64,000 nucleotides of DNA from positions 192,001-256,000 of the forward strand of contig JADJFV010000035.1 in the NCBI GenBank assembly GCA_016708435.1, in the 5' to 3' direction. Positions within the stretch are counted from its first letter, which is position 1. Each line of letters starts with the position of its first letter. The notes beneath the pieces are model-generated. The model made no database searches and was not told the origin of the DNA. It saw only the letters and a program-made list of their open reading frames with translations. Positions 7,391-60,420 of the stretch are shown one piece after another. A program made the position numbers and the translations under genes. Origin of the DNA: Leptospiraceae bacterium. GTDB lineage: Bacteria; Spirochaetota; Leptospiria; Leptospirales; Leptospiraceae.

Positions 7391-7423
7391 TTTTATTTCT
7401 CGATTGTTGTTATAGGGGATATT

Positions 7424-7480
7424 TTATATTAACCGCAATTCTTTTCTGAAATCATGCGTGATTGGAGAGGCACAGCCGTG
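7424..7480 (-). promoter_or_regulatory. conserved upstream element (copy 1 of 3) directly 5' of the 6977..7390 gene
   Basis: tatattaaccgcaattctt...tggagagg shares a core with 8095-8143 and 9305-9353. Confidence 0.35.
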
Positions 7481-7485
7481 CGTCT

Positions 7486-8082
7486 CTACGTGTAGAATTC
7501 ATCATCTTCCCAATTTCTTGGATTGTTTGCAATATAATTTCTGACGTTGTATAATTCTATTTCGTCTCTAACAATCCGGTCGTGGAATCGGGGTTGCCAT
7601 TGGAAATTGTTATTCAAGACGCGATGAATCGCGTCTCTACGAGATATTTCGAATGTAACGCGACCCTTATACCAACGAATTATTTTTGATAAAGACAATG
7701 GATTTAATACAGGATTGTTTATCCCTGTAATTCCGCCTTGCTGTAGAGACGCGATTGATCGCGTCTTATTTGAACGCGCAATTTCTGATTCCATCTCGAA
7801 TGATTTTTCCTGTCCTGATAAATATAACAATCCATGAACATGATTTGTCATTACAATGAATTCATCCAATTCTGCATGAGGAAAATGTTTTGGAACTTCA
7901 GACTAGATATTTTTTGCAATCAATCCCATTTCCGATAACACCATTTCCCCATTCTCAATCTCCCCAAAAAAATGCTCTCTATCCTTCGCGCATATGGTTA
8001 TGAAATAATATCCATTATCCGCATAATCCCAACCTTCTCTTCGTGTTGATTCGATTCTGTATTTATTTTGGAATAATGTCAT
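7486..8082 (-). pseudogene. REP-associated tyrosine transposase (RAYT, IS200/IS605-like Y1 transposase) interrupted by an in-frame amber codon
   Basis: N-terminal piece MTLFQNKYRIESTRREGWDYADNGYYFITICAKDREHFFGE... (8082..7906), TAG at 7903-7905, then the same frame continues SEVPKHFPHAELDEFIVMTNHVHGLL ... WQPRFHDRIVRDEIELYNVRNYIANNP (7902..7486); HuH motif HVH and C-terminal RAYT signature present. Confidence 0.6.
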
Positions 8083-8094
8083 TTTGCCTCTGTT

Positions 8095-8143
8095 TTTAAC
8101 TTAACCCCAACTCTTCTGCGATGTTGCGGGTGAGTTTGGAGAG
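8095..8143 (-). promoter_or_regulatory. conserved upstream element (copy 2 of 3) directly 5' of RAYT start
   Basis: ttaaccccaactcttctgcgatgttgcgggtgagtttggagag is near-identical to 9311-9353. Confidence 0.4.
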
Positions 8144-8148
8144 ATGAT

Positions 8149-9276
8149 TTACTTTGCCCATTTTTTGATTTTATCTAGTATTCTTTTATTCTCTTCCATA
8201 CGTTCCTGTAAAGATTTATCTGAAGGTATCTCATTGGTTTTCTCTCCCTCCTCATTGTCCTGCTTTGCTTGCGGAACATAAGTTTCAATTTCTTTTGCCA
8301 TTTTTTGAAGAGCTTCTTTAAATTCGGGAGTTATTTTTTCTTTTTCGTTATTAACGATTAAATCATAAAAACTTTCAATTTCTCCTCCCTTCTCCTCGGT
8401 CATTTTTGAATAAGATATGTATAATTCTCTTGCTCTATCAACCTGCCCATTCAATATATAGTCTGAAATACTTTCATTTAATTCTAGAATGTCATTTAGA
8501 TATTTCATTTGTTTATTTATTTCTTTCATGCCTTCGGAAAGATTTTTTATTACTTCCTCAAATTTCTTAACAGAATTTCTTTTATTACGTATAGCATAAC
8601 GTGTTTGCTCTTCAACACTAAGTGCTTCTAGCTCTACTTCTGTCAAAATGATTTCTTGCGAAGTGGACAGATTTGAATTGTCTTGCTTATTCTCTACAAA
8701 ATTTCCAAAATTTTCTAGAATATATTTTCCTTCTTTTTTGGGTAAAGAATCTATTAGAGCATTGATTTCCTTTTGAGTTGGAACTTCTTTAAAATTGCCT
8801 TCTTGTATTTCACGATTCAATGCCTCCAAAGCTTCACTATAAAGCTCATCAATAGATTTTGATTTTGACTTTTCGATTTCATCTGTTTGTATTGTTTCGC
8901 CTGCGATCTCATAATAAATTTTATTTGTATTTTCATACATATCTTCTAAACTTTTAATTTCTAATTCCATTGCGATCTTGTCAGTTTTCAGCGAATTTAT
9001 TCCTTCTTCCAGAACGACTAAGAGTTTTTCAAATAAATCATTCTTTTTTCTGGCTCTAAGTCTAAGGATACTTGTTTGAATAAGTTTTATGTTCTCTTGG
9101 TAATTAGCTCTTAGTTTGTTTAACCTGCTTAGAGAATTCACTTCTTTTTCTAGAAACGACTTTGTCAAACTAATAAAATACTGCCTCTGCTCTTCTTCAG
9201 GCATTGCTAGAATTTCTTCCTCTGTTAATATCCTGAATTTTGGATCATCTAAATCCGAGGTTTCATCGGTTTCCAT
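8149..9276 (-). CDS. acidic coiled-coil hypothetical protein
   Basis: 375 aa, E/K-rich heptad pattern, no enzymatic motif seen. Confidence 0.5.
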   Translation of the reverse strand: METDETSDLDDPKFRILTEEEILAMPEEEQRQYFISLTKSFLEKEVNSLSRLNKLRANYQENIKLIQTSILRLRARKKNDLFEKLLVVLEEGINSLKTDKIAMELEIKSLEDMYENTNKIYYEIAGETIQTDEIEKSKSKSIDELYSEALEALNREIQEGNFKEVPTQKEINALIDSLPKKEGKYILENFGNFVENKQDNSNLSTSQEIILTEVELEALSVEEQTRYAIRNKRNSVKKFEEVIKNLSEGMKEINKQMKYLNDILELNESISDYILNGQVDRARELYISYSKMTEEKGGEIESFYDLIVNNEKEKITPEFKEALQKMAKEIETYVPQAKQDNEEGEKTNEIPSDKSLQERMEENKRILDKIKKWAK

Positions 9277-9304
9277 GTATTAGCCTCATTTTTTTGTGGT
9301 TATT

Positions 9305-9353
9305 CTATATTAACCCCAACTCTTCAGCGGTGTCGCGGGTGAGTTTGGAGAGG
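9305..9353 (-). promoter_or_regulatory. conserved upstream element (copy 3 of 3) directly 5' of the 8149..9276 gene
   Basis: ttaaccccaactcttcagcggtgtcgcgggtgagtttggagagg; on the minus strand reads ...TTGGGGTTAATATAGAATAAC before the ATG (possible -35/-10). Confidence 0.4.
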
Positions 9354-9359
9354 GGACGT

Positions 9360-10231
9360 TTAATCTCTCGGTAAGTCAGGGAAATTTGCTCGAACCATTC
9401 CAGCGAATTCGGAAGAACTTTTTGCTAAATCAGAAATTTCAGTTTTATAATGCTTAATATTCTTATTTATTATATTTATAATAACTTGCTCTTTAGCTAA
9501 TTTTAAAGCTATTTCATTTTCTAGTCTAAGTTCCTTTAACTTAATTATTTTATTAAACAATATTTCTCGAGAATTATTTAAGGACGGACGTTCTAGTCCA
9601 CATGTATTAATAGTAACTTTACCCTTTTCTGACTCTATTCCTGTCGGCATTACTTGTGGAATTATTTTTTCACGGATAAAAGTAATATGCTCTTCGGGAT
9701 TATCTTTTGAGGGATGTAGCAATAAGGCATTTTCTTTATGCAAGTTTTTTGCATTGTGGTGTGAACTTACTCTAAACATATTATTTTTAATTGTAAATAA
9801 ATTTTTTTTATATCTTCTATTACAATATGCGCAACTCAATAAAAGATTATCCCATTTATATGTTAACCAATAATAACCCGGAAATATTAATTTTCTTTTC
9901 TATTATTTTTATACCCTGCCTTTGGTCTAAAATGCTCAACATCACCATCTTGTTCATTCGTTGTTATTTTTCGTTCACAGTAACAACATTTATCATGTTG
10001 ATTTTTTATTAAATAATTTTTAATCTTACTATAATGGTCTGTATCAAAATCAAATTTTTTGGGCTTCATTCCACTTGGTTGATTTTTATAGTCATCTGGT
10101 GTTTTTAAGTATTCATCGCAATGTTTTTTTCTTAATTTTCTGGATTTCTCAAACCAATCTTTATCTGGTCTTATTTTCTTTTTGATTTTTATCATGACAT
10201 ATCCTTTAAGTATAAAATTAAATAAAATCAC
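9360..10231 (-). pseudogene. PtuB-like HNH endonuclease (TIGR02646-type, Septu partner) split by a frameshift
   Basis: ORF 9887..10231 carries CCYCERKITTNEQDGDVEHFRPK (HNH motif I). After its stop the -1/+2 frame reads PGYYWLTYKWDNLLLSCAYCNRRYKK (HNH motif II W-NLL-C--CN--K) and runs into ORF 9360..9839. The frameshift falls in an A-run around 9876-9890. GTG start overlaps the PtuA stop (TAGTG). Confidence 0.6.
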
Positions 10232-11718
10232 TAATTATTTTCGTATATACTTCCAGTTTCTTTCATTAACATAAATAATTCTTTTTCTTCATCAGGAGTT
10301 AATTCCTTTTTTAAAAGGAGCTTTAACTTTCGATCTATTAATTTAATTTGATTATCAGAATAGGTTTTTGCTTCTGTATCAAATAACTCACTACTAAGAA
10401 TTTGATCGATTCGACGATTTTTAAAAATATTAATTCTTTTTTCTGGATTATCTGGATCTTCAGGAAATAGATTATTAAGATTAATGCTACCATCTTCTTC
10501 TTTTTCAAATTTATATAACGCAACATTTTCTAGGGTTGATGCGCCTAGCATAATTTCAGGACTATGAGTAGTAATAAAAAACTGAATATTTGGAAACCAT
10601 TCATTTAATTTACTTGGAAATTTTATTTCCCATTTTGGATGCATATGAACTTCTATTTCGTCAATGAAAACTATTCCGGTGAAGTCTGGGAATTTTGTTG
10701 CTTCTGGTTGAATTTGAATAAAACGGTAGGTAAGATTTATAAGAAAACAAATCATGCTTCTAAATCCAGCAGATAATTCATCATATCCGAATTGTTCATC
10801 ATTAATTATAAAATTAACAATATCAGTATTTAGAGAGATTATTACTTTTTTTTCTAAAAAAACGGATAACATTCTATCTAGAATTTCAAGGTTCATTTTT
10901 GAAATTTGTTCCTTCGCATTTCTTTTGTTATAAAAGTCTAAAAGTAATTTCTTGGGATGAATTAAAGTGTATTTATTTGAAAATAAAGTTTCACAAAAAA
11001 AAGATTGCTCTACTGTAGGAATGTAATCTCTTAAGGAACCAAATGCGATGATTCTGTTAAAATCATAATTAATTACTTCTTTACTATCTAGAATATTACT
11101 TAAACTATATGTATTTTCTTTTGCTTCATTTTTCAAAGAAAGAATTTCTTTATCATCTATCTGTTCGATAAATCCTTTGTTTAAAGAAAGAAATATCGAT
11201 TGTAATAATAGGGTTTTTCCGTCTCCATTCTCTCCCAATATATATATTTGCCGTTTATCTTTTAGTGAATGCAAAGTAATATTTTGAAGGCTATGAAAGT
11301 TTTTAATATAAAATTCATCTAAATAATAGTTTTCAACTGCATTTAGGAAAATATCGAAAAATTTCTTTCTTACTTCTAAGTTATTTACTTTTATTAGTGT
11401 ATTAAACCAATTGCCTATACCTTCTCCATACTCTTTTTTTGAAGGTGCTTTCCCTGAATACAAATCTCCTTTTCTTTTCCAATCAACTCCAACTTTTTTA
11501 TTAGAGTCAGCAGGAGAAGTGATAAAACCAATTGCCTTAATCTTTAAATCATATTCTCCTCCTAAAGACTTTAAAATTATTATATCATCTTTTTTTATTT
11601 CTGGTATATATTCTTCACCACCGCCTGAACCAATCCAATAATTTTTCTCTAAAAAATCATCCAATTGACTTTCTGTTTTTCCAAAATGGTATCCTGCTGC
11701 CCAATATTGTGGTTCCAT
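10231..11718 (-). CDS. PtuA-like AAA_21/ABC-type ATPase (Septu-like defence ATPase) with an N-terminal extension
   Basis: Walker A ILGENGDGKTLLLQSI, Walker B/D-loop IVFIDEIEVHMHP, TTHSP H-motif; about 130 aa N-terminal region without ATPase motifs; translationally coupled to the HNH gene. Confidence 0.7.
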   Translation of the reverse strand: MEPQYWAAGYHFGKTESQLDDFLEKNYWIGSGGGEEYIPEIKKDDIIILKSLGGEYDLKIKAIGFITSPADSNKKVGVDWKRKGDLYSGKAPSKKEYGEGIGNWFNTLIKVNNLEVRKKFFDIFLNAVENYYLDEFYIKNFHSLQNITLHSLKDKRQIYILGENGDGKTLLLQSIFLSLNKGFIEQIDDKEILSLKNEAKENTYSLSNILDSKEVINYDFNRIIAFGSLRDYIPTVEQSFFCETLFSNKYTLIHPKKLLLDFYNKRNAKEQISKMNLEILDRMLSVFLEKKVIISLNTDIVNFIINDEQFGYDELSAGFRSMICFLINLTYRFIQIQPEATKFPDFTGIVFIDEIEVHMHPKWEIKFPSKLNEWFPNIQFFITTHSPEIMLGASTLENVALYKFEKEEDGSINLNNLFPEDPDNPEKRINIFKNRRIDQILSSELFDTEAKTYSDNQIKLIDRKLKLLLKKELTPDEEKELFMLMKETGSIYENN

Positions 11719-11838
11719 ACTTAACTTCCTTTATATATAATTACGTTAATCTCTACATTTCAATCCAAACGTAAAGTAGTTCCATAGCTTTACATGGTAT
11801 TAGCTAATGACAAAAAAGGAAAGTAGAAATTATTTGAG

Positions 11839-12153
11839 TCAGCATAACAAACTCCCCGAATCCAAAACCCTAACTAATTTATTTACATTTGCTTTTTCCT
11901 CTACATTAAATAGCGTATTCCATATTTCAGGAAAGGCAAGAATTTCTAATTCTAATATTTTGGTAAAAGAATCTGTATTATACCGCTTTGCTACATCTTT
12001 TAAGAAATCACGAAATCGTTCTACGACTCTCGGCTCTATTGACACAAAGATTGGATTGTTCAAATCGTCTATGCCCACGAAAAAGAGAGACACGCCTGTA
12101 ATAAAAGGCATCTCATAGTATTCATTTTCATTCATGCCTACCTCCGTGCGCAT
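11839..12153 (-). CDS. hypothetical protein
   Basis: 104 aa ORF; preferred over the overlapping plus-strand ORF 11807..12118, which is low-complexity. Confidence 0.3.
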   Translation of the reverse strand: MRTEVGMNENEYYEMPFITGVSLFFVGIDDLNNPIFVSIEPRVVERFRDFLKDVAKRYNTDSFTKILELEILAFPEIWNTLFNVEEKANVNKLVRVLDSGSLLC

Positions 12154-12167
12154 AGTCCAGACAGCGG

Positions 12168-12860
12168 CTACTTAATACTATCCACTTTTTCCTGATTGAT
12201 ATTTTTTAGGCTTGGGACATATCCGTTCTCTTTGAGACTTAGCATTGAAATAATTTCTGGGACTACATATTCGTAGCCTCTTGGGTTTACTTCCATACCT
12301 GATCTGTAGCTGGATAATATCAATTTACCGTTATATACTTTGAACGTAATCTCTTGTGATTCACGGGCACCCGGTGGATTTAGAAAGACAGCGACTGTTT
12401 TTTCCTTTTTATTTCGTTTTAGATCCAAATTCTTTTTTGTAATGCTATCACCGGTTTCCGCATTTTTAGAAATATATAACATATACAAGTCTTTTAAAAC
12501 TAACTTGAAATAATTCTCTTCTCCCGTTGGATTATAGATTGGTAATTCCAAAACATCTTTTGAATCAGGAAATTCTTTCTTTAGTAACGCAAGTAATTTT
12601 CGGTTCAATACTTCTTCGAGCGCAGCCCAACTTTGCTTTCTCTCATAATCCTGTGATGTTTTAACATTTTCAATTAAATTTCGAATAGGGAGTTTTTTAA
12701 GGTTCTCTAATTTTTTATCGATTGTATCTTTTTCTTCTTGCGTCAACTCAGTCTTAGCCTCTTCTTTAGGCGCTTCTATATACGGTGCTGGCGCTGATTC
12801 TTCCGGTGTGCTTGCGCAGGTTATTAAACTGAATAGGCTAATTATCATTAAATACTTCAT
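12168..12860 (-). CDS. hypothetical lipoprotein
   Basis: Signal/lipobox MKYLMIISLFSLITCAS. Confidence 0.55.
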   Translation of the reverse strand: MKYLMIISLFSLITCASTPEESAPAPYIEAPKEEAKTELTQEEKDTIDKKLENLKKLPIRNLIENVKTSQDYERKQSWAALEEVLNRKLLALLKKEFPDSKDVLELPIYNPTGEENYFKLVLKDLYMLYISKNAETGDSITKKNLDLKRNKKEKTVAVFLNPPGARESQEITFKVYNGKLILSSYRSGMEVNPRGYEYVVPEIISMLSLKENGYVPSLKNINQEKVDSIK

Positions 12861-12969
12861 TCTATTTTCCTTTTTTTGTTTCTAAAATTATTCTCTCATC
12901 TTACAATAGAATCATTTCGCGATCCGGAAACTTTCTTTCCGATTCTAATTTTTTTAATAACATGACTGA

Positions 12970-13929
12970 TTGTCCGATAAAATAAGGATGAGTAGAAAAA
13001 AGAATCTGACATCCAGTGAACAAATCATTTTAGCGATTGAGTTTTTGAGTCTAGCTGATGAATATATATTTCGAAAGAAAGATTTAAATTCCCTTTCTTT
13101 GGCAGAATTACTCGATGAACTTCAAGACGCCGAGAAGGAAGGCAAAGAATCGGATTGGGGTCTTGATAGAAGGTTTCGACTGTATACAGGAAAGTTAAAG
13201 AAAATCGGTGTTAGTCTAAACTTGAAATCGAAAAAAATAGAATTTGAAAATAAAAATATTCCATTTAAAATTATTTCTACTTATGTAAAATTCTTTTGTG
13301 AGGATTACAACGAACAACACCTTCGTATATTTTTTAAATCAAAAAAAGAAGATTTCTATGAAGTATTGCGGTTATTTGTATTTATTCGATATGCTATAAA
13401 GTATTCACTTGTAATTGAATTAGAATTCGCTAAGTCTATGAATTGGCAGAAATCGATTCGGCGGATAATTCCTAGATACCTTATCTCTAAGAATCAATTT
13501 TTAGATGTTGTGGTAACAGATTTAAAAGATAAACGAGGTAAGTGGTTCTCACTTGTAAATATTATTTCATTAAAAAATGATTTACTCTCTGCCTATAAAA
13601 AAAGGAAAAAGAGTAATATTCCTTTTGATCGAGTTAGCTTTGAAGCTTCCCCGGAAAGTCAGTTTTATTGGGTGACTGTCGTATATACCGTTCAATTCAA
13701 TAGTTATTCCTTTGTTCATTTTTCTACTACGAATGAAATCGAATACAAAGTAATTAACAACGATAATCCACTTGCTATCATTGTAGAAATTTCGTGTAAT
13801 GATGTTTTCTTGATTCAAAGGATTCTGTTTAACTACGGAATTTATGTAAAACTTTTAAGTCCGGCATCTGCGGTTCTTGATTTTAAAAATAAAATTTCTG
13901 CTTTAGGGAAACATTATGAATACTTATGA
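12970..13929 (+). CDS. possible WYL-domain transcriptional regulator (BrxR/CapW-like architecture)
   Basis: 319 aa; central RRIIPRYLISKNQFLDVVVTDLKDKRGKWFSLVNIISL resembles a WYL core; C-terminal GIYVKLLSPASAV resembles the WCX V-V-LeP motif; assignment by pattern recall only. Confidence 0.35.
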   Translation: MSDKIRMSRKKNLTSSEQIILAIEFLSLADEYIFRKKDLNSLSLAELLDELQDAEKEGKESDWGLDRRFRLYTGKLKKIGVSLNLKSKKIEFENKNIPFKIISTYVKFFCEDYNEQHLRIFFKSKKEDFYEVLRLFVFIRYAIKYSLVIELEFAKSMNWQKSIRRIIPRYLISKNQFLDVVVTDLKDKRGKWFSLVNIISLKNDLLSAYKKRKKSNIPFDRVSFEASPESQFYWVTVVYTVQFNSYSFVHFSTTNEIEYKVINNDNPLAIIVEISCNDVFLIQRILFNYGIYVKLLSPASAVLDFKNKISALGKHYEYL

Positions 13930-13952
13930 AGACGCGATGAATCGCGTCTCTA
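13929..13952. repeat. REP-like palindrome agacgcgatgaatcgcgtctctacg
   Basis: Same palindrome as the two copies inside the RAYT coding region (7617-7640, 7745-7768). Confidence 0.55.
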
Positions 13953-14564
13953 CGGTTTCGTATTTTTCACAACCCACTCTCCCTACTAATATACCGGATA
14001 CTATCTATTAACTCCTGCGTGATGGAAATTCTTCTTGATTCTAAGGAGTCGAAGAGGAAGGAAACAAAAGTTGTATTAGGTTTTTCTCCGAAGGATTTTA
14101 CATGGTCTAAGTATAATTTTTTGCACTTCGCCACGTCTCTGTTAGCCACATCGGTTTCGATGCTGGTATCATTTCTTTTTTCTATTAAAGCTTGCACGAA
14201 TTTCTCCTTTCTTATGCACGAGAAACATTTCTAGAGGATGAATTTCTGAACTGTTTTCTGTTTATGAAATGATTCTATACCAAGGGCAGGACAAGATGCG
14301 GAAAATGTTTTTCCGATTTGGTAATTTCTTTTAGGAGGGGGAAATTTTTTTACTTTCTTTTACTTACCGTTTTATTACCGATACATCAAGGATAGTATCA
14401 AACATAGTTTCAAGAATAGTATCAAAGATACTACTTTTAATTCTATGACTATCTTTGATACTATGGATGTCAGTTTCTTTGATTCTATACTTGAGATATA
14501 GACAACTTAACGGCTTCTTAATTTCTACTAGAGCTTTGGACTTGTTTGATTAGAGACAGGCGGA

Positions 14565-14731
14565 CAATGTCATTCAGTTAAGTGCCATTTACCCCAGTCA
14601 CCTCGAACTGCTTAATCGTGAGAGGTCTAACCGGCATACGTCGTATAAGATTAACCAATACAATGTTTGAGAAATAGATTTCTCACATTCGTTCGAAATG
14701 ACCGTATAATTTCCTTAACTTAATGACTTTG
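14565..14731. repeat. TIR-bounded MITE-like element sharing TIR CAATGTCATT(C/A)AG with the CACGAAG family but with a different core
   Basis: caatgtcattcagttaag ... cttaacttaatgac termini; core cacctcgaactgcttaatcgtgagaggtctaaccggca has inverted homologues at 2478-2530 and partial ones at 29925-30040. Confidence 0.45.
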
Positions 14732-32850: not shown

Positions 32851-34038
32851 CTATTCTGTAGAGTCATCCTCAAGATCCGATTCATTTGGGTTAATGGTCT
32901 CAGGCGTTGTGTCTGCTGGTTGTTTTTCTTCTTTTGCTGGATAATTGGCTTCTTCTTTTAAAAGTTGAATGCATTCTTTCGAGTATTTTCTCGCTCTCTC
33001 CGTGATTGTGCTTGGTTCATACTTATCGACTATCGCATTGAATACTGCTGCTGCCCGATCGTATTTCTTGGTAGAAAAAAGTGCCATACCTTTAGTGAAA
33101 AGTGCATAATGATCGAGAAGACCCGGTTCGTTTACTAGCACTTCTTCGGCAAAGCGAATTGCTTCCGCATAACGTCCTAACTTTAAGTTTGACTCGCCCA
33201 TATAGTAAAGAATTTTCTCTCTTTGCTTACCGGCAGGTGTAACCTTTAGGAGTCTGGCAAATGCCTTAAGTGCTTTGTCGAACTGATTCTTATTGTATAA
33301 TGTTTTGGCTCTATCGTATCCAGAAGATTTATCCTCAGTGATTACTGCTGGCTTAGGCTCTTCCTTATCTATCGAAGCAATTTCTTCTGAATAATTTTCG
33401 AATATGTCATAAGAAGCAAAGTCTTTTCCTAATTTTCGTAAGGCTCTCGTCCAACCAATTCTAGCTTGCACATTATTCGGGTATTCCTGAACAGCTAGAA
33501 AATAATTTTTACTAGCATTTTCGTATTTTGCTTTTCTCATATAAAAGTCAGCGATAGAAAGAAGTGCTCTTGATCTTAGTTTGTTGTCGCGACTTGTTTG
33601 GAGAACGGAGTTTAGATGAATCTTTCCTTCTTCTTCCTGATTGAGAACGAGTAATAGGTTTCCCAGCGCATAACTAAGATTTTCCCTTTCGTCTTTGGAA
33701 AGATTTGGAACCTGATTTAATTCCTTGTAGATGTCTAATGCTCTTAGTCTGTCTTTATTTTTTTGCAGTGCGCCTGCATGACCGAAAGTTACTCTAAACT
33801 TATAAGCATCAGGAACTGATTTGGAAGAAAGCTCAGTGAAAAGGAGTAATGCTTTTTGTGAACTCTTCTTGCTGGATTGACTCAAAAGCTCTTCCGCTAT
33901 CTTTAATCTTTCTTCAAACGGATAAGCATTGTTTTCCACCGATTTTTCTTCTGCTTTATTCACCATTATATACACGGCAGTTAAAACTCCACCGGAAACG
34001 AATAAAAACCCAACTAAGACATATATTAATCTACTCAT
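32851..34038 (-). CDS. TPR-repeat protein
   Basis: N-terminal TM segment then multiple TPR-like repeats. Confidence 0.65.
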   Translation of the reverse strand: MSRLIYVLVGFLFVSGGVLTAVYIMVNKAEEKSVENNAYPFEERLKIAEELLSQSSKKSSQKALLLFTELSSKSVPDAYKFRVTFGHAGALQKNKDRLRALDIYKELNQVPNLSKDERENLSYALGNLLLVLNQEEEGKIHLNSVLQTSRDNKLRSRALLSIADFYMRKAKYENASKNYFLAVQEYPNNVQARIGWTRALRKLGKDFASYDIFENYSEEIASIDKEEPKPAVITEDKSSGYDRAKTLYNKNQFDKALKAFARLLKVTPAGKQREKILYYMGESNLKLGRYAEAIRFAEEVLVNEPGLLDHYALFTKGMALFSTKKYDRAAAVFNAIVDKYEPSTITERARKYSKECIQLLKEEANYPAKEEKQPADTTPETINPNESDLEDDSTE

Positions 34039-35693
34039 TTACTTCCCCGATTTTCCAAACATCTTTTTACGTAAAAATCCACTCGCTCTTTATTATAGTT
34101 CATTTGCACATCTTCACTCAGAAGTATTTTTAACGCAGAACTATACTCTTTTTGGTTATAATAACAGAGGGCTGCGAAAAATAACGATTTACCTCTGATG
34201 GCATTGCTAGATACTCTATCTGCTAAGGACTCAAACTTCACACGAGCCTCTGTGAATTTATCCTTTTTATAATACTGGGACATGATTGTATCAAAGTCCG
34301 GATTTGTTTCTTCTTCTACTACTGGTTTAGAAGGAGAAGGTTTTTCTTCCGGTTTAATAACTTCAGGCTTGGTTTCTTCTGCCTTTGTCTCTTCGATTTT
34401 TTTCTTTTTCTTTTTTTTCTTCTTTTTGCTAGGATCGATTTTAATGAAAGATTGTCCTTCTTGGAGAATTAGGTTTTCTTCTCCCTCGCCTGTCTTTGAA
34501 GTCACTGCATAAAACATAGGAGTTTTCTTGTTTAAGTTTGGATGCAGAAAAGAAACGTCAGGATGAACTACAGTGCCAATCTTTTTTGCTTTTTCTATTA
34601 GGGTTGTATTTGTCTCGGAGGCGATGCGAGTATTCGATTCATAAATGGAATACTTGGTTGAATTCACAACTGCTCCTTCTGGTGCAGTCCATGCGAGTAG
34701 AATTCCATCTTTTCTTACATCACCTGTAAGATTTGTAACTTGCAAAGGTTTTGTAATGACTACAACTGTGTCTTTTTTTTCTTCAACGACTGCGATTTTT
34801 TCGTCTTTAGCAGGCTCTTCTTTTTTCTCTGTTTTAACAAAGTAAAATTTGCGAAAGGATTTATCTTCTATTAAAGGTGTTGCTTCCTTATCTTGAATTG
34901 TAACGGTTACTCCATAGTAGACGGTTTGAGAGGAATCGAGTCCTGTATCTAGAAAAGTAGTTTCAGGATGAATCACTTCTCCTATCTTTGTGGCTTTTTC
35001 CATTAGCCCCACATTCGACATCGGATCAGGAGATCGGTAAATGGTATACTTAATGGAATCCTCTGCTCCAATCGGGGGAGTCCAGGAAAGTCGAACTGAA
35101 TTTTCTACGGTTCTAATTTTTAAATTACTGATTGAATCCGCTTCGTGTTTTACTTCTGCGATTTGAGGGAGGACTTTTTTAGGAGTATCAATTGGAGCCG
35201 GAACGACAGCAGGGGTAATTGTATAGTTGACTCCCGGAAAAAGCTTGACTCGTTTTTTCTTAATTTGGGATACCAATACAATCGCGTAATAGTATTCACC
35301 AGGTCGGAGATTTGTGTCTTTAAAATTATTGAAAAAGTTTATCTTGTCACTCTTATACTTTCCAAGAGAATCGGATACGCCTAATTTTTCCATTGTATCA
35401 ATTACTTGATTCGATCTTGCGATGATTACATCCCCTTCATCGGCGGGAGGTGTCCATTTCAATTCAATGGAAATCGAATCTGCACTGAGAGTTGCTGTTA
35501 GATCGGAGACTACATCCTTATCTACTTTTTTCTTTTCTGTGACTTCTTTTTCTGTTTCTGTGATTTTTGCCTCTTGGGGAAAAATGGAAACAGTAAGCGC
35601 AAAAAAGGAAATCCAGAATAGCATAATGCACAGACTAGTGTGAAAAGGGTTTTTCTTAGGATTGGGCTGGTTGGTTTTAATTGAATGTTTCAT
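34035..35693 (-). CDS. Fn3-like repeat / TPR protein with internal poly-lysine tract
   Basis: Three WTPP...Y.Y... Fn3-like modules; C-terminal TPR; a K11 run encoded by the homopolymeric tract near 34395-34435. Confidence 0.55.
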   Translation of the reverse strand: MKHSIKTNQPNPKKNPFHTSLCIMLFWISFFALTVSIFPQEAKITETEKEVTEKKKVDKDVVSDLTATLSADSISIELKWTPPADEGDVIIARSNQVIDTMEKLGVSDSLGKYKSDKINFFNNFKDTNLRPGEYYYAIVLVSQIKKKRVKLFPGVNYTITPAVVPAPIDTPKKVLPQIAEVKHEADSISNLKIRTVENSVRLSWTPPIGAEDSIKYTIYRSPDPMSNVGLMEKATKIGEVIHPETTFLDTGLDSSQTVYYGVTVTIQDKEATPLIEDKSFRKFYFVKTEKKEEPAKDEKIAVVEEKKDTVVVITKPLQVTNLTGDVRKDGILLAWTAPEGAVVNSTKYSIYESNTRIASETNTTLIEKAKKIGTVVHPDVSFLHPNLNKKTPMFYAVTSKTGEGEENLILQEGQSFIKIDPSKKKKKKKKKKIEETKAEETKPEVIKPEEKPSPSKPVVEEETNPDFDTIMSQYYKKDKFTEARVKFESLADRVSSNAIRGKSLFFAALCYYNQKEYSSALKILLSEDVQMNYNKERVDFYVKRCLENRGSK

Positions 35694-35895
35694 AAATTAC
35701 CATTAAAGAACAAAAGAAAAACAAAAATAGAACACTTGGAAATAAATTTCAACCAATTTAATTATAAATATCAATGCAATTTACAATCAATCCTCTATTT
35801 ACTCTTTAAAAACTTAGGTTTAATCCTCCTTTTATTATCGACATTTCAGAAATGAGATTATATACAAGATAGAATAATTTACCCACGAATTCGCC

Positions 35896-36037
35896 CAATG
35901 TCATTAAGATAAGAGTTTTTCACCACGAAGAGCACGAAGTTCACGAAGGGGTTTATGATGGAATCCTTTTTTTCTTCGTGTTCTTCGTGCCCTTCGTGGT
36001 GAATTCTTTTTTCTTTTATCTTAACTTAATGACATTG
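35896..36037. mobile_element. MITE-like hairpin element, CACGAAG-heptamer family, copy A
   Basis: TIRs caatgtcattaagataag / cttatcttaa(ctta)atgacattg; arms caccacgaagagcacgaagttcacgaagggg and cttcgtgttcttcgtgcccttcgtggtg; flanked by direct repeat cacgaattcgcc on both sides. Confidence 0.7.
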
Positions 36038-36216
36038 CACGAATTCGCCTGGCGTCTTTGCAGTGAGACATAAGGAAGAGTGGAAAGCTCCAGACTCTCA
36101 CTTGAATTTTCGATTTTTCTAAATAGAATGTCAGAAGGAATTTCTTTGTTGATAGGCTTTCTAGTGACTAATAATTCCAAATCTTCTTCGAACGATAAAA
36201 ATTATCTCTAAATGAT

Positions 36217-36795
36217 TCAGCTTGCCAAAGGATGATATTTTTTTTCTGTATCTAAAACAGATTTCGACACCTCTGGATTTAAAGATAACGCTCCCCCATT
36301 TTTGTGAAATCGTAATACTGCAGGAGAAATTATAAAGTCTTCATAACCTTCTAGCTTGGGAGTCTTAAAAGTCTTACGAAACCACTTGAATAAATCGTTA
36401 GCCATATTTAGAAACTTATCATCTTTTGGTGTAAAGGTTTTTTCAAAATAGATTTCTTTGCTATAAAAAAATCTGCCCCTATTCAACTTGTCTAAATAGT
36501 TTTCATAAAACGGAATTAGTAATTCCACAACAGGTGAATTCGTTTCGTCAATAGTATAATAATTTTGATTTGCAATGAACTTACGGATAATTTTTTCTTC
36601 GTCACTTTTTAAAGCGATATAGTATTTATGAATCACAAACTCTGAACTAGAAATCGGATTCACGGAAGATACAATTCGTAACTGTTCTATCGGACTAGGT
36701 GAGGCTAATAACATTAATTCTTTTTCTTGAACATAACGCTCTACTAAGTCCCAATCGTTTGGCAAAAGATAAAAATTAATTTGATTAGTTCTCAC
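36217..36795 (-). CDS. hypothetical protein
   Basis: 192 aa ORF inside the AT-rich island, no motif recognised. Confidence 0.45.
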   Translation of the reverse strand: MRTNQINFYLLPNDWDLVERYVQEKELMLLASPSPIEQLRIVSSVNPISSSEFVIHKYYIALKSDEEKIIRKFIANQNYYTIDETNSPVVELLIPFYENYLDKLNRGRFFYSKEIYFEKTFTPKDDKFLNMANDLFKWFRKTFKTPKLEGYEDFIISPAVLRFHKNGGALSLNPEVSKSVLDTEKKYHPLAS

Positions 36796-37286
36796 GATAT
36801 TTTTCCTGCTCTACGCTTTCGTTGTTATTGTAAGAATGAAATTCTGGTTTAATTCCCATATTTTTATAAATTTCTCTAACATTTTCCCAGGATGAATAGG
36901 AGTTTGCGCTTTTGATTTTTTCTTAGTTGGTTTCTTTTTTAATGGCATCGGGAATGACCTTGAAATACTAAAATGTCCATTTGGACATTTTTTACAAGGA
37001 ATAAATATTTTTCTTTATAAGAGGAATTTTTTTTAAATTCATTAACCATTCAGCATTAATAATTCACCATTATTAAAAGCGGCTAATTGGGTGTAACGAT
37101 ACTAGTCTTCCTTAGCACGGGAAGAATTTTTGCTTGCCAATATATTATCATGGTTCAGTATCTAAAATAAAATATCTGATTCTGTGCGTCACATATCTCT
37201 TTGCTATTTGACTGTTACATGTTTAAATTTTGAAAATTCCATAAATTAGATAAATGGCCTTTAATCTACGGACTCTGCCTAATGTA

Positions 37287-38027
37287 TTAAGATAGTTCTA
37301 TAAGCCAGTCTTTAAACGCTGGCCATCTATTTTCTTCAATGATATTATTTAGTGATTCAATATCTAGTTCGTAGTGAGGTGATTCTATTTCAATTATTGT
37401 TTCATCTTCCTTACAAAATAATTTTTCATTTTCCCTTGCGAGCGAAAGAATTATCAATCCCATACCATATCTCTGTGATAATCTTTTAAATTCACGCTTT
37501 GCATCCAAATCAATTTCAGTGACCACTAAATATCTATAATTTGCCCAAGAAGAATTTGCTAGACACTGAAAAAAATATTTTCTTACTTGGCTACGATTAA
37601 CATTCTTTTTTACTTCAAAGCAATAAATATCTTTCCCTTTTCCTATGATTCTAATGAGATTTTTTAATTTAATAGGAAATTCTTTTATTCCTATTAAATC
37701 TGGGTATAACCATTCATTAACCCCTTTTATCCCATTACCTCCGGCTTGCGGAAAATGCTTTGCCTGAATGGATAGTTTTTTACCAAGCCAGCATATAAAC
37801 GGTTCATATAAATCAGTCTCTTTATTAAAAAGCTGTGATAGATATTCAAATTTTTCATCACTCTTTTTTATTTTTCCCTTTTTTAATAAATTATTTAAAC
37901 TAATATTTACAATGTCCTCGGAAATTTTATTTTTTAAATTATTGTTAACTCCTTTAAATATATCATTTTTAGATATAGGATACAGATTATTTTTTAGAAA
38001 AGTATAAATTAATTCTTCTTGTTTCAT
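37287..38027 (-). CDS. hypothetical protein with possible N-terminal wHTH and C-terminal PD-(D/E)xK-like nuclease motifs
   Basis: WLYPDLIGIKE ... IYCFEVKKN (D ... E-x-K spacing) in the C-terminal half; last gene of the ParA-like operon. Confidence 0.35.
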   Translation of the reverse strand: MKQEELIYTFLKNNLYPISKNDIFKGVNNNLKNKISEDIVNISLNNLLKKGKIKKSDEKFEYLSQLFNKETDLYEPFICWLGKKLSIQAKHFPQAGGNGIKGVNEWLYPDLIGIKEFPIKLKNLIRIIGKGKDIYCFEVKKNVNRSQVRKYFFQCLANSSWANYRYLVVTEIDLDAKREFKRLSQRYGMGLIILSLARENEKLFCKEDETIIEIESPHYELDIESLNNIIEENRWPAFKDWLIELS

Positions 38028-38029
38028 TG

Positions 38030-38590
38030 TTATTTTACTTTAACATCAAAGATAGAAATAATTTTTTTACTGTCCTGATAAATAGTAACCCATTCAGTAT
38101 TATTCTTTTTTGCCTGTGAAAGCATAAAAATATTGTCTTTACTTCCTTTAATTCCTTTGGTTAGATTTGCAAATAAACTCATTTCTTTTTTCTCCAATGA
38201 AGATAGTCCATTTATAATGTTTAGACTTTCTTGCAACGATGAAGTTTTTATTTTAGACAATACCTTCGCATACTTCATCGCTTTCTCTTTAAATCTTTTT
38301 TCTGCTTCTTGTAATTGTTCTAGAATTTGTTTTAACTCAAGAATTGTAGTTTTCTTGGATACTTTTGTGATACCTTTTGATTCTATTAAAAATAATCCGA
38401 GAAGATCAGAAGGGATATTGGATTTTAAATCACTTATTTTTAATTTTGCTTTATTTAAAATGATTTGGTTGTAATATTTTTCTAGGATACTACCAAGAGA
38501 AATTATTTCTTGTGTGCTGAGAACTTCTATATTCTCCTTAGATATAAGTTCCAATAATTCTTTAATTCTATATAAATTCATTTTTTCCAT
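38030..38590 (-). CDS. coiled-coil hypothetical protein
   Basis: 186 aa, overlaps the ParA-like gene end by 13 nt, 3 nt gap to the next gene. Confidence 0.45.
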   Translation of the reverse strand: MEKMNLYRIKELLELISKENIEVLSTQEIISLGSILEKYYNQIILNKAKLKISDLKSNIPSDLLGLFLIESKGITKVSKKTTILELKQILEQLQEAEKRFKEKAMKYAKVLSKIKTSSLQESLNIINGLSSLEKKEMSLFANLTKGIKGSKDNIFMLSQAKKNNTEWVTIYQDSKKIISIFDVKVK

Positions 38591-39540
38591 CCTTTTAAGA
38601 TATACTTTCCAATCTCATTTAATCTTCTGCCATTTTCCATATTTGCACTTCCATCATCTATTGGTCTAGAATTTTTGTATGCTGTCAGCACTGATGCAGA
38701 CTTTTTGAGACCCGGAAATATTCCGAATCCACTAATGTATTCTTTTAGATGCTTTTTCCATTTTGTGCTGTATTCATTTTCAATTAAAGAAAAATATTCC
38801 TTATGAACAGTAAGCCTCGTTTCCCAATTATTGTATACTAGACCCCTGAGTTTTCTTTGTTTATTATTAGGATAATTTTTAAACTCTTCAAATCTTTCAG
38901 ATATTTCATTTAGAAGTAATTCCATACCATGCAATGAGATAGAATCAGGCACAATGGGGATTAAAATACTATCACAGTAATAGAGAGCATTTATATTTAG
39001 GAAATTTATATTTGAAGGCGAATCAATTATAATGTAATCATAATTTTCTTCAACATCTTTCAAGCAATCTTCAAGAAAACTATAAATGTAAACAGGATCT
39101 TTTTTAGTTTTGATAGAAACTTTACTATCCTTAAAGCCTCTCTGAAAAATATCAATTTCAATTTTACTCAATTTGGGATGCGATGCTAGTAAATGGAGTG
39201 TTTCATAAGATTGCAAACCTTTTCCGGAAAATATCGGACTTTTTTCATTCATGCCTATAATGACATCTTTTGCGTGTGCAGGAGCCGATCCATCAATTCG
39301 AGTTTTAAAAAGATGATATAAAGTTAACGATGAATTTTGAGCGATATTATTTAAGTAATACTTTTCGCTGAGTAAATAAGTAGAAGCTGACTTTTGAGGA
39401 TCAACATCAACCAATAAAACTCTTACTTGTTTACCTTTAGAGTTAATTTGAAGCGAAAGAGCTGCGGCAAGATTTACAGAAAAAATAGTTTTTCCTACCC
39501 CGCCCTTACTATTAGCTATATGAATTCTATGTGCTGGCAT
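38578..39540 (-). CDS. ParA/MinD-superfamily ATPase, atypically long (320 aa)
   Basis: Deviant Walker A ANSKGGVGKTIFSVNLAAAL; Walker B YIIIDSP; about 90 aa C-terminal extension. Confidence 0.7.
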   Translation of the reverse strand: MPAHRIHIANSKGGVGKTIFSVNLAAALSLQINSKGKQVRVLLVDVDPQKSASTYLLSEKYYLNNIAQNSSLTLYHLFKTRIDGSAPAHAKDVIIGMNEKSPIFSGKGLQSYETLHLLASHPKLSKIEIDIFQRGFKDSKVSIKTKKDPVYIYSFLEDCLKDVEENYDYIIIDSPSNINFLNINALYYCDSILIPIVPDSISLHGMELLLNEISERFEEFKNYPNNKQRKLRGLVYNNWETRLTVHKEYFSLIENEYSTKWKKHLKEYISGFGIFPGLKKSASVLTAYKNSRPIDDGSANMENGRRLNEIGKYILKGWKK

Positions 39541-39715
39541 ATTACGGTTAATCCCTCCATATTATAATTTTACATCTAATAATTTCTATAGATTTTTTCT
39601 TTTGAAATTACTTTTTCCATCTCAATTCTCCTTTTTATTCTCTGGAGCTTAGCTTAATTTTGCTACCCTAAAATTCCGGTTTCATCTGAACTGGAATACT
39701 TTAATTTAAAAACTT

Positions 39716-40687
39716 TTAATCAATCTTATGTTTAGGATTTCGATAATATTGTAACTCTAGATCATACATTGGCTGTAATCTAGACTTAATTTCTCCAATT
39801 TCTTTTGTAATGGAATTTTCTTTATTCATGGCATCCTCATACTTTTCATTATTTAATTTTATTCGATTTATTTCTTCCTTACTAATTTGATTCTTTGGAG
39901 GGTTCTTTGAATAGAAGTTAAAATATCTTTTCTGACCGTTCTTCATTACAAAAGGCACTTCCCCATGAAAATACATTTCTGTGATTAATAACATTGGCAT
40001 TTGTGTAACGACTAAATCTTCTCTACTAATGATATAATAATTTTTACTTATTATCGCTCCATCAGTATTAAAATTACCATTATCAGGAACTGCAAGTCCA
40101 TACATGTAAATTTCATTCTCACCTTTAGAGTCAATTTCACAATATAGTTTAAAAGTTTTTAATGTTTTTTTATTCCTTTCTACAATTTTTTCCAATTCCA
40201 TTCTTTCATCTTGTATATGTAATAGTTCTTCTTCTCTTTGCTCCAAACGATTCATTAAATTTGCATTTTCTAATCTAAGTGAGTCGATTCTCTTTTTTAA
40301 ATCTTTGAAGTATTTAATTTCATTTTTGAAAGGTGGAAGATTGCTGCCACATACGTGTGAGTAGTGCATTATAAAATCCGAATAGTCATTATAATTATTT
40401 ATTTCGGAAACTGCATTTTGAGCCACATTTAAAGGTTCCTTGTGAGGAATAAAAACAATTCCGACTTTACTCTCTGAAAAAATATATTCTAAACCTTTTC
40501 TGTTATCAATTGTTTGTTTTCTTTTTAATAAAACACTTAGCACCTTTCTATTTCCTTCATTCATTATATTGCTTTCAGGAATATTTTTTAAATTACCAAA
40601 ATTAGGGCAAGCATCACTATTTTTCATCGGTGAAGAAGTGCTACATTTTAAAAGTAATACTAAGGATAATATAATGATTTTTTTCAC
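39716..40687 (-). CDS. hypothetical lipoprotein with central coiled coil
   Basis: Signal/lipobox LLLKCSTSS. Confidence 0.5.
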   Translation of the reverse strand: MKKIIILSLVLLLKCSTSSPMKNSDACPNFGNLKNIPESNIMNEGNRKVLSVLLKRKQTIDNRKGLEYIFSESKVGIVFIPHKEPLNVAQNAVSEINNYNDYSDFIMHYSHVCGSNLPPFKNEIKYFKDLKKRIDSLRLENANLMNRLEQREEELLHIQDERMELEKIVERNKKTLKTFKLYCEIDSKGENEIYMYGLAVPDNGNFNTDGAIISKNYYIISREDLVVTQMPMLLITEMYFHGEVPFVMKNGQKRYFNFYSKNPPKNQISKEEINRIKLNNEKYEDAMNKENSITKEIGEIKSRLQPMYDLELQYYRNPKHKID

Positions 40688-41350
40688 AGTATTCAGTATG
40701 TTTAGCTATTATTAACATATGTCAACTATTAATTTGATTTTTTTTTCTAGGAATTTACCGGATCTTCTTTAATCCAAAAAATCTGATTAAATGTATTCGT
40801 TCTAAATTCAAGGATTAGAACATAAGGACTAATTGTCTGCAAACAATAAAAGGCTTACTTGCTGTGTAAGAAATTTTCATTGAACAATGATTATCTATCA
40901 TAATAGAGGATTGCCTTCGTTTTCTGTTGAAATTAGATACAAAAAACCTTATTACCATCATTCAATATTACACATTGATAAGCTCTCGCGAAGGTTAACT
41001 TTGAGAGAGCATTTGGAAGAAAAAAGAATAGTGAAGGAAAACAAAAAATAGTCAATCCCAACAACATCGAGGATGTTTTTAAAAATCCCGATTTTTTACC
41101 CCTACCCAATACCTACCTTCCGATACATCAAAGACACTATCTATGATACTATCAAGGATACTATCAAAAATACTGTTTTCGCCTTTTTGAGTATGTTTGA
41201 TAGAAGACCTGACAGTGTAATTGATAGTAACATAGATGCATCGTCAATAAGAATCATCCAGAAGCTAAAAACACGGATAACCTTAAAATCCCAAACCTTC
41301 TATCGGTGTCCATCGGTGGTAATCTTTGAAAGTTTTCTCTAACCTGCTAG

Positions 41351-41493
41351 CAATGTCATTAAGTTAAGAAAAACCAAGAAAAATTTAACCACGAAGGGCA
41401 CGAAGAACGCGAAGAAAAGACAGGATTTCTTCATAAACCCCTTCGTGAACTTCGTGCTCTTCGTGGTGAAAAATTCTTATCTTAATGACATTG
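41351..41493. mobile_element. MITE-like hairpin element, CACGAAG family, copy B (inverted relative to copy A)
   Basis: caatgtcattaagttaag ... cttatcttaatgacattg; flanking direct repeats aacctgctag / aacgtgctag. Confidence 0.7.
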
Positions 41494-41601
41494 AACGTGC
41501 TAGCATCCGACACACTATTATTACCTAACAGGAAAAAGAGTGGAATTTATTTACAACAAATGATTTATTGAGTCGATTGGACATAATGGGGAATAATTGA
41601 A

Positions 41602-52496: not shown

Positions 52497-52632
52497 CAAT
52501 GCTGCATAATTAAGAATTTTTCACCACGAAGGAAACGAAGATCACGAAGGAGTTTATTATAAAACTCTATCTTTTCTTCGCGTTCTTCGTGCCCTTCGTG
52601 GTTACTCTCTTCTTGGTTTTCCGACAGCATTG
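52497..52632. mobile_element. MITE-like hairpin element, CACGAAG family, copy C (variant TIR caatgctg...cagcattg)
   Basis: Arms caccacgaaggaaacgaagatcacgaagg / cttcgcgttcttcgtgcccttcgtgg; flanking gaaatcgct / gacatcgct. Confidence 0.6.
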
Positions 52633-56389: not shown

Positions 56390-56529
56390 TTTAACACGCT
56401 TACGCTAAAGCGCACAAAGTAAAAAGCCACAAAGGGCACTAAGGACTTAGTGTTGGAAAAAGAAACTTTGTGAGCCTTGTGAAATCCTTTGTGTTCTTAG
56501 TTTTAAAAAAAGTGGAATAAAAGATTCGG
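56390..56529. repeat. hairpin element, CACAAAG family, copy 1
   Basis: About 140 bp, about 93 percent identical to 58068-58207; arms gcgcacaaagtaaaaagccacaaagggcac / ctttgtgagccttgtgaaatcctttgtgttc. Confidence 0.65.
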
Positions 56530-58067: not shown

Positions 58068-58207
58068 TTTTAACACGCTTACGCTAAAGCACACAAAGTA
58101 AAAATCCACAAAGGGCACTAAGAGCTTGGTGTAAGAAAAAGAAACTTTGTGAGCCTTGTGAAATCCTTTGTGTTCTTAGTGGTATAAAAAGTGGAATAAG
58201 ATATTCG
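58068..58207. repeat. hairpin element, CACAAAG family, copy 2 (direct orientation relative to copy 1)
   Basis: ttaacacgcttacgctaaagcacacaaagtaaaaatccacaaagggcac...ctttgtgagccttgtgaaatcctttgtgttcttag. Confidence 0.65.
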
Positions 58208-60276: not shown

Positions 60277-60420
60277 AATGCTGTAAACTTAAGATTTTTT
60301 AACCACGAAGGACACGAAGATCACGAAGGGATTTTGTAATGAGATCCTGTCTTTTCTTCGCGTTCTTCGTGCCCTTCATGGTTAATTCTTTTTTTCTTTT
60401 CCTTAAGTCAACAGCATTAG
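60277..60420. mobile_element. MITE-like hairpin element, CACGAAG family, copy D (variant TIR taatgctg...cagcatta)
   Basis: aaccacgaaggacacgaagatcacgaaggg / cttcgcgttcttcgtgcccttcatgg; flanking gcttgctatc / gcattcgctac. Confidence 0.6.

Follow-up and report, generated by a model that had tools for sequence, protein, structure and literature searches.

In this study, we examine a stretch of DNA of 64,000 nucleotides (the window) from Leptospiraceae bacterium, an uncultured species (assembly GCA_016708435.1, contig JADJFV010000035.1, positions 192,001 to 256,000), and focus on one AT-rich segment within it. The segment (~36050-41297, ~5.25 kb) lies between two inverted copies, A and B, of a miniature inverted-repeat transposable element (MITE). 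It carries five minus-strand open reading frames (ORFs) encoding proteins of 192, 246, 186, 320 and 323 aa, as well as an array of 12-nt repeats. Three of these genes, which encode a ParA/MinD-type ATPase, a partner protein and an HrgA-like nuclease, are referred to here as the trio. The best overall explanation of the locus is that an island was acquired horizontally, that the MITEs inserted independently of it and that the trio is a candidate defence module. We put the probability of this combined reading at roughly 0.6.

The island and its intergenic site

An earlier sequence-only reading of this DNA described an AT-rich segment between the MITEs with five minus-strand genes and took it for a horizontally acquired cassette. 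All five genes were recovered at the positions it gave, and the composition check that it had proposed bears out the AT richness. The enclosed segment has a guanine-cytosine (GC) content of 29.3%, compared with 36.1 +/- 2.1% in 1-kb background windows (Mann-Whitney p 1.6e-4) and ~35% for the source bacterium. Its tetranucleotide profile deviates as well, with a distance from the background of 0.374 when background windows reach a maximum of 0.258.

The second proposed check was a comparison of the flanks across related genomes. We used the neighbouring FapA-like protein to scan a set with one genome for each species, which yielded five Leptospiraceae metagenome-assembled genomes (MAGs) whose FapA is 83-92% identical (loci L001-L005). 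In 5/5 species the island is absent between the flanking Fn3/TPR and methyltransferase genes: the flanks end at window 35760-35881, resume at 41532-41572 and are only 55-155 nt apart. What lies in between differs in every related species. The most distant relatives (L003, L005) have ~20 nt between conserved flank motifs, and the others (L001, L002, L004) hold unrelated short inserts. Because the same gene set is missing between conserved flanks in all five relatives, and because GC and tetranucleotide content deviate, the data support a horizontally acquired cassette in one Leptospiraceae species, as the earlier reading had it. That the segment is instead ancestral and was deleted from the related species, with no acquisition at all, is highly unlikely. 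Just five related species are at hand, all of them metagenome-assembled, which speaks in its favour; yet it requires loss in every one of them, and it does not sit well with the clearly deviant composition, with the near-empty or unrelated contents of the spot or with the closest trio homolog, which stands in an unrelated context.

On the right side, the DNA at 41298..41340 (TATCGGTG...GGTAATCTTTGAAAG) is ancestral intergenic sequence: it resembles what L004, and less clearly L001, has between the flanking genes at its empty site. The ~40 nt directly left of MITE B (TATCGGTG...GGTAATCTTTGA) match the L004 empty site, most clearly via the variant of this DNA in contig L229, which has a ~40-nt match to L004. 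Given that the adjoining DNA matches the L004 empty site, MITE B was inserted into ancestral DNA, and the island ends no further right than ~41297.

The island was found in 16 metagenome contigs and in one 747-kb MAG contig (GCA_016718635.1, L017/L226) whose flanks are 99.6% identical to the window. It occupies the same locus in every contig that reaches past it. We take the hypervariable intergenic spot between the Fn3/TPR and methyltransferase genes as the island's site; it most likely came in via recombination at the conserved flanks, or else on a vehicle since lost. Integration mediated by a tRNA gene or an integrase was considered and rejected, as neither gene was found near the island (the sole tRNA of the window is at 27.1 kb). 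The island also holds no transposase, and the sole transposase-like ORF near the repeats is a Y1 fragment at 7486-7869. A plasmid or phage origin was likewise set aside: island DNA matched none of 72,556 plasmids, and searches for homologs of the nuclease in 50,697 phage records and of the partner in IMG/VR gave nothing.

Seen as an island, the segment is unremarkable. It shares with defence and variable islands at intergenic hotspots a low GC content, presence/absence between close relatives, content that varies by species at one spot and a mosaic, decaying cargo with toxin-antitoxin remnants. Unlike such islands, it has no integrase or tRNA gene and is small (~5 kb), and its defence-like content amounts to one uncharacterised system only.

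The intergenic spot gathers small elements in several species. For example, L002 (1173-1329) has a different insert of ~150 nt at the same place, with GCCACAGAG-type inverted repeats. One conspecific contig (L230, 1-42) diverges directly left of window 41516 into unrelated sequence (TTGATTGCACAACATTTAGTCC...), which may represent another hotspot allele or another repeat insertion. Within the Fn3/TPR gene itself (34035-35693, minus strand), an imperfect T/C-rich tract at 34400-34430 encodes ten lysines. This gene is broken into several ORFs in the L017 MAG, which could be an assembly error or the result of slippage-prone sequence.

The MITE pair and its family

MITE A (35896..36037, plus strand, 142 nt) has terminal inverted repeats (TIRs) of the form CAATGTCATTAAG(A/T)TAAGA, also given as CAATGTCATTAAGTTAAG, and three CACGAAG units per hairpin arm. 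It is bounded by a 12-bp direct repeat, CACGAATTCGCC at 35884..35895 and the identical 12-mer at 36038..36049, which reads as its own target-site duplication. MITE B (41351..41493, minus strand, 143 nt) is inverted relative to A and has a 10-bp target-site duplication of its own (AACCTGCTAG at 41341..41350, AACGTGCTAG at 41494..41503). The inverted arrangement around the low-GC segment that the sequence-only reading had noted is genuine: A and B are mutual reverse complements, with arms 94% and 88% complementary and 91% identity over 144 nt. Both are non-coding (no ORF), have TIRs at both ends and form a long hairpin (DNA minimum free energy -38.8 kcal/mol, z -12).

The same reading went on to suggest that the pair had mobilised the segment as a composite. 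In such a composite transposon, a trans-acting transposase working on the outer ends would have moved the whole 5.6-kb unit. Two related inverted copies do bracket low-GC DNA, the family is multicopy (four CACGAAG copies plus related elements in 64 kb) and at least one copy was recently mobile. The history of the two insertions, however, tells against this idea. Each copy has its own duplication (12 bp at A, 10 bp at B), and the outer flanks are unlike one another (CACGAATTCGCC against AACGTGCTAG). MITE A is present in the conspecific L006 and L017. MITE B is an insertion polymorphism within the species: it is present in L227, L232, L233, L007 and L010, and absent in L017/L226, L229 and L234, where a single AACTTACTAG marks a clean empty site. 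These three assemblies belong to the same species (flanks 95-99.6% identical) and retain the island's right end and, wherever the contig extends far enough, the array. Moreover, B stands in DNA homologous to the empty-site sequence of a related species, and the 16 contigs show the unit at no other location. Because its site is empty in island-bearing conspecific assemblies, MITE B is a polymorphic insertion younger than the island. Because the duplications are separate and one copy is missing where the cargo stays, the pair did not move as a unit. We reject composite transposition, which we regard as extremely improbable. Campbell-type integration or circle recombination through a MITE copy was rejected too, as it would leave direct copies and A and B are inverted. 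MITEs A and B are separate insertions into edge DNA and did not carry the island in, and we hold an island with independent MITEs to be very probable.

Published examples of MITE-bounded mobile units are MITE-flanked integrons or resistance cassettes. The locus resembles such units and composite transposons in that foreign cargo lies between two copies of a single short element with TIRs. It departs from them in its separate target duplications and in the conspecifics that keep the cargo with one copy missing. The bracketing is a coincidental insertion into permissive edge DNA rather than a transfer mechanism, and it counsels caution when composite transposons are called from sequence alone.

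Both copies belong to a larger family in the window, where the pattern CACGAAGnnCACGAAG has 20 matches against 0.18 expected. MITE copies lie at 35.9, 41.4, 52.5 and 60.3 kb (CACGAAG core hairpins at 35919-36003, 41384-41471, 52525-52600 and 60304-60380), variants at 56.4 and 58.1 kb and an element with the same TIRs at 14.6 kb. The copy at 52.5 kb has a 9-bp imperfect target duplication, and many metagenome contigs end within MITE copies. The two variants (56400-56500, 58080-58190) represent a sister repeat that is built alike but has its 7-mers altered to CACAAAG or CACTAAG. The element at 14565-14731 is 167 nt long and has the TIRs of MITEs A and B (CAATGTCATTCAGTTAAG / CCTTAACTTAATGACTTTG) around an unrelated interior without CACGAAG units. 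This suggests that TIRs and core hairpin are separable modules. No autonomous element with a transposase and matching TIRs was found within the window. The Y1 fragment mentioned above (7486-7869, minus strand) is what is left of a truncated IS200-like Y1 transposase of the type associated with repetitive extragenic palindromes (Pfam Y1_Tnp, 1e-6); IS200-like Y1 transposases make no target duplication.

The core hairpin (cACCACGAAGnnCACGAAGnnCACGAAG ... CTTCGTGnnCTTCGTGnnCTTCGTGGTg) consists of three CACGAAG units per arm at 2-nt spacing, bounded by cACC/GGTg. Its exact arm pattern recurs in more than 120 stretches of IMG/VR contigs (including L026-L145). Among them are 34 distinct hairpins with both arms, in contigs of 52-70% GC that in some cases hold several copies, and across the IMG/VR copies the 7-mers are conserved while the spacers are free. 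The core hairpin is not lineage-specific and has the look of a repeat family shared across phyla. Records of isolate plasmids and phages did not contain it. MITE, array and island gave no Rfam family match (sub-threshold generic hairpin matches only), and a literature search on the CACGAAG repeat returned nothing relevant.

The ATPase, its partner and the nuclease

The first gene of the trio (38578..39540, minus strand) encodes a 320-aa ParA/MinD-type ATPase with the deviant Walker A motif KGGVGKT. The protein matches the Pfam domains AAA_31 (3e-33) and CbiA, its closest solved structures are Soj/ParA (E 4e-16), and its Walker A, A' and B motifs are intact in an alignment of the subfamily. It has these motifs and domains in common with ParA/Soj/MinD ATPases, together with a partner gene that follows it and is translationally coupled. 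It stands apart from plasmid ParAs, to which it is at most 30% identical, and falls far below the cut-off of all NCBIfam ParA_partition, RepA, SopA and MinD models (best 75 bits vs a cut-off of 180). It falls in a small, distinct subfamily marked by four insertions and by the motif K(G)WKK at the C-terminus.

The partner, or adaptor, protein is encoded at 38030..38590 (minus strand, 186 aa). Its start is likely at 38581, as in the gene calls of L006 and L017, which gives 183 aa and an overlap with the ATPase stop codon. Homologs of the partner always stand directly after a ParA-like gene (L014 55%, L016 36%, L015 33%, L237 29%, L238 25% and L235 24.5% identical) and share a conserved, basic N-terminus. 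Neither the partner nor its homologs have a Pfam, NCBIfam or PADLOC match. In L015 and L016 the protein is longer and its N-domain is duplicated.

The third gene (37287..38027, minus strand) starts 2 nt after the partner gene and encodes a protein of 246 aa, the predicted effector. In its AlphaFold2 model (pLDDT 90.5), a winged helix (residues 1-62) is followed by a restriction-enzyme-like C-terminal domain of PD-(D/E)xK type, and the best structural neighbour is 3dnx. The catalytic residues D110, E138 and K140 (D-ExK) are invariant in a 50-sequence alignment. These features place the protein in the HrgA/DUF511 (PF04373)/COG2958 family, to which Helicobacter pylori hrgA ('restriction endonuclease-replacing gene A') belongs. 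The two have in common the winged helix plus PD-(D/E)xK architecture, all three motifs and the structural neighbour, and tblastn gave 33-34% identity (E 7e-20 to 1e-19) to annotated plasmid entries named 'HrgA protein' or 'COG2958 family protein'. For DUF511, a winged helix plus PD-(D/E)XK domain with 3dnx as nearest structure was predicted in 2011, with its function not established (PMC3045609). Relatives of the nuclease have HARE-HTH or Mrr_N N-termini. There was no PF04373 match for the nuclease or for 59 scanned relatives (Pfam library, E<=0.01), and this model may be narrow or retired.

A full HMMER search gave 825 representatives of the nuclease family at E<=1e-3, compared with one homolog in a word-indexed search. 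For the wider family, we read genomic contexts from the best 80 metagenome loci. Its members are ~310 aa long and often sit in restriction-modification (R-M) loci. The immediate neighbours of the 80 homologs are enriched in HsdR (6-7), HsdS (6), YhcG, Schlafen/AlbA_2, FokI, BrxL and recombinases, and on a Vibrio plasmid HrgA lies immediately upstream of hsdR. The nuclease of the island differs from this family in its length (246 vs ~310 aa) and in its place as third gene after a ParA-like ATPase and a partner.

The order ATPase-partner-nuclease is kept in four other lineages, with the genes overlapping or abutting. In the closest of these (L014, host GC 34%, 76/55/72% identity for ATPase/partner/nuclease), the trio lies within a type I R-M operon, with HsdS and HsdR on either side and HNH and AAA_21+RloB genes next to it. 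The remaining three are more distant: L237 (host GC 57%, 38/29/33%) is a short contig, L235/236 (53%, 31/24.5/31%) has housekeeping flanks and L238/239 (45%, 28/25/33%) ends inside the ATPase gene. Between strains of the island's own species the trio is 100% identical. An order conserved at such divergence argues for the trio as a functional unit. It forms an operon with translational coupling that distant lineages have kept. The view of the sequence-only reading that the segment contains only lineage-orphan genes is thereby partly right: it holds neither for the nuclease, with its large family, nor for the trio as a whole, which recurs in other lineages.

Beyond the trio, the island has separate cargo: a lipoprotein gene, the gene of the 192-aa protein next to decayed remnants, and the repeat array. 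The putative lipoprotein (39716..40687, minus strand, 323 aa) is an orphan with a signal-peptide-like N-terminus and a coiled-coil segment. Among all fetched loci, its gene occurs in conspecific contigs only and is not part of the trio elsewhere. Weak matches of the lipoprotein to FliJ and, among the PADLOC models, to LmuB were judged to be coiled-coil noise.

The left module of the island, which is more strain-variable, contains the gene of the 192-aa protein (36217..36795, minus strand). The predicted fold of this protein has no assignable function. It has ten homologs, always with an ORF of 58 or 105 aa directly before, and at some of their loci (L018-L021) the neighbours include Mrr, Tox-URI2, DUF4240 and HepT genes. 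Between this gene and the trio lies a decayed, indel-polymorphic spacer (36796..37286, minus strand), in which translations compared with L006, L018 and L022 reveal what is left of a HigA-like antitoxin (36811-36948) and the surviving C-terminal part of the small ORF that partners the 192-aa gene. L017 is without 36875-37233 (at L017 12308-12315), and L006 (4541-4624) has ~83 extra nt that restore more of the HigA-like frame and of the small ORF before the 192-aa gene. P0278 is a natural fusion of a HigA-like protein with a member of the 192-aa family. The left module is ~96-98% identical between strains, compared with 100% for the trio, and therefore the island is mosaic.

Possible roles of the operon

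As an alternative, the sequence-only reading had named a partition module derived from a plasmid or an integrative conjugative element. On this account, the island is the remnant of such an element, ATPase and partner are a partition pair and the 12-nt array is the centromere. The iteron-like repeats reported near 41118-41185 are indeed there. TRF finds 4.5 copies with a period of 12 at 41122-41174 (score 64), and the array as a whole (41122..41237) is an imperfect palindrome of 3-4 direct 12-nt units, GATACTATCAAr, followed by two inverted units that extend to 41237. The palindrome-containing units resemble centromere/operator arrays, the ATPase has a ParA-type fold and motifs, and the partner gene is translationally coupled behind it, as in parAB operons. 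In addition, the trio of L014 is 6-8 kb from ParB_N and HTH_36 (Rep-like) genes.

The array, however, is not linked to the module in any homologous locus. It lies ~1.6 kb from the ParA-like gene with the lipoprotein gene between them, it is absent from all homologous modules (L014-L016, L235-L238) and from IMG/VR, and it recurs in an island without ParA. Its absence from those loci and from IMG/VR means that the array is not the trio's centromere. Unlike ParA partition systems, the module has no conserved centromere, its partner shows no DNA-binding domain in the Pfam, NCBIfam and PADLOC libraries (no ParB, ribbon-helix-helix or helix-turn-helix signature) and its conserved third gene, a nuclease, is not a feature of partition loci. 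The distance to plasmid ParAs and the missed NCBIfam thresholds point the same way, as does the island itself, with no replication, transfer or integrase gene, no plasmid DNA similarity and nothing found in viral contigs. What stands of the partition alternative is a ParA-type ATPase with a partner; it is weak, and we consider it improbable.

The other copy of the array lies at 14378-14489 and is ~75% identical over ~130 nt; for 14378-14460 the identity is 75%. Apart from one isolated, overlapping pair at 13994-14008, near-exact matches to the motif are confined to these two sites. Each array folds into an imperfect palindrome (DNA fold z -3.4), and the copies differ by a flip of the unit's central base, mirrored on the opposite arm, which gives 3/22 compensatory pairs in a comparison of two sequences only. 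The two array modules (14375-14500 and 41118-41245, units GATA[C/G]TATCAAr) each stand within a low-GC island of the window, close to its right edge, and in both cases a MITE with the shared TIRs is 75-115 nt away.

In tetranucleotide profile, the second low-GC island (window 6000-14600, 25-31% GC) resembles the studied island more than it does the background. Its cargo includes a Septu system, with PtuA at 10231-11718 and PtuB split into 9887-10231 and 9360-9839, a split that has probably inactivated it. It also holds a WYL-like gene (319 aa, 12970-13929), an ankyrin-repeat gene (5493-6980), the truncated Y1 transposase described above and coiled-coil orphans. Since this second island carries Septu, such islands hold defence cargo in this genome.

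For the trio, we tentatively favour a role as a DNA-targeting, restriction-like defence module, at somewhat less than even odds. Its catalytic motifs are intact, and its nearest homolog and many relatives of its nuclease lie in R-M or defence neighbourhoods; from this we infer defence activity. By analogy with ParA biology, the ATP-bound dimer of the ParA-like protein would bind DNA. The partner might then modulate the ATPase through its conserved basic N-terminus and link it to the nuclease. In line with known ATPase-nuclease defence pairs, the winged helix of the nuclease could select foreign target DNA, which the PD-(D/E)xK site would cut. This scheme has a common logic with Septu PtuAB, Gabija, PARIS and Lamassu, in which an NTPase controls a nuclease effector, and the trio also shares their R-M/defence neighbourhoods and patchy distribution. 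The likeness is one of working mode and not of membership. The ATPases of those systems are of ABC, SMC or OLD type and that of the trio is of ParA/MinD type; unlike them, the trio has no PADLOC match and consists of three components with an unrelated adaptor. Menshen, which pairs a ParB-DUF262 protein with an ABC ATPase, was considered and found to be unrelated. A literature search on ParA-type ATPases in defence returned nothing relevant. The trio is built from known domain families, and a new defence module is plausible. That it is an undescribed anti-phage or anti-plasmid system, the first in which a ParA/MinD-type ATPase (and not an ABC, SMC or STAND NTPase) controls a restriction-fold nuclease, is a possibility that we rate lower still.

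Several observations weigh against the combined reading of acquired island, independent MITEs and defence module. On the side of the island, multiple alignment does not fix the left edge, as the intergenic spot is too variable, and a 10-bp repeat, AAGAGTGGAA, at 36076 and 41536 could mark an att-like core. We rejected this last candidate: it is the sole repeat of at least 8 bp across the edges, it is near chance level and it conflicts with the ancestral DNA at 41298-41531. On the side of the trio, no PADLOC-DB v2 model matches the ATPase, the partner, the nuclease or their L014 orthologs. A ParA-like neighbour occurs in 0/80 of the best loci of the wider nuclease family. For HrgA no activity has been demonstrated, and doubt has been cast on whether it acts as a restriction enzyme (PMC3045609). 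The trio of L235/236 is flanked by housekeeping genes and matches its host in GC content, so that it is not compositionally foreign. Finally, L015 and L016 have an ATPase-partner pair without the nuclease in ordinary chromosomal surroundings.

These last two contexts are also what recommends another explanation, namely that the operon positions cargo within the cell, as the orphan ParA/MinD ATPases of McdAB or PomXYZ do, and is on an island by chance, the nuclease being an unrelated or regulatory passenger. The L015/L016 pair (53-57% identity) and the housekeeping flanks of L235/236 would fit such a role. The position of the nuclease and its catalytic residues, however, are kept in five lineages whose components are 24-76% identical, one trio stands inside a type I R-M operon, and the island has a low GC content and is confined to a strain or species. 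We consider a positioning system about as doubtful as a partition module.

Altogether, the trio is the island's more valuable part: a ParA-class ATPase and an HrgA-family nuclease, found together in genomes of 34-57% GC with no PADLOC v2 match. If the defence role is true, it would add a new ATPase class to nuclease-based immunity and would give the widespread, R-M-associated HrgA/COG2958 family its first functional context.

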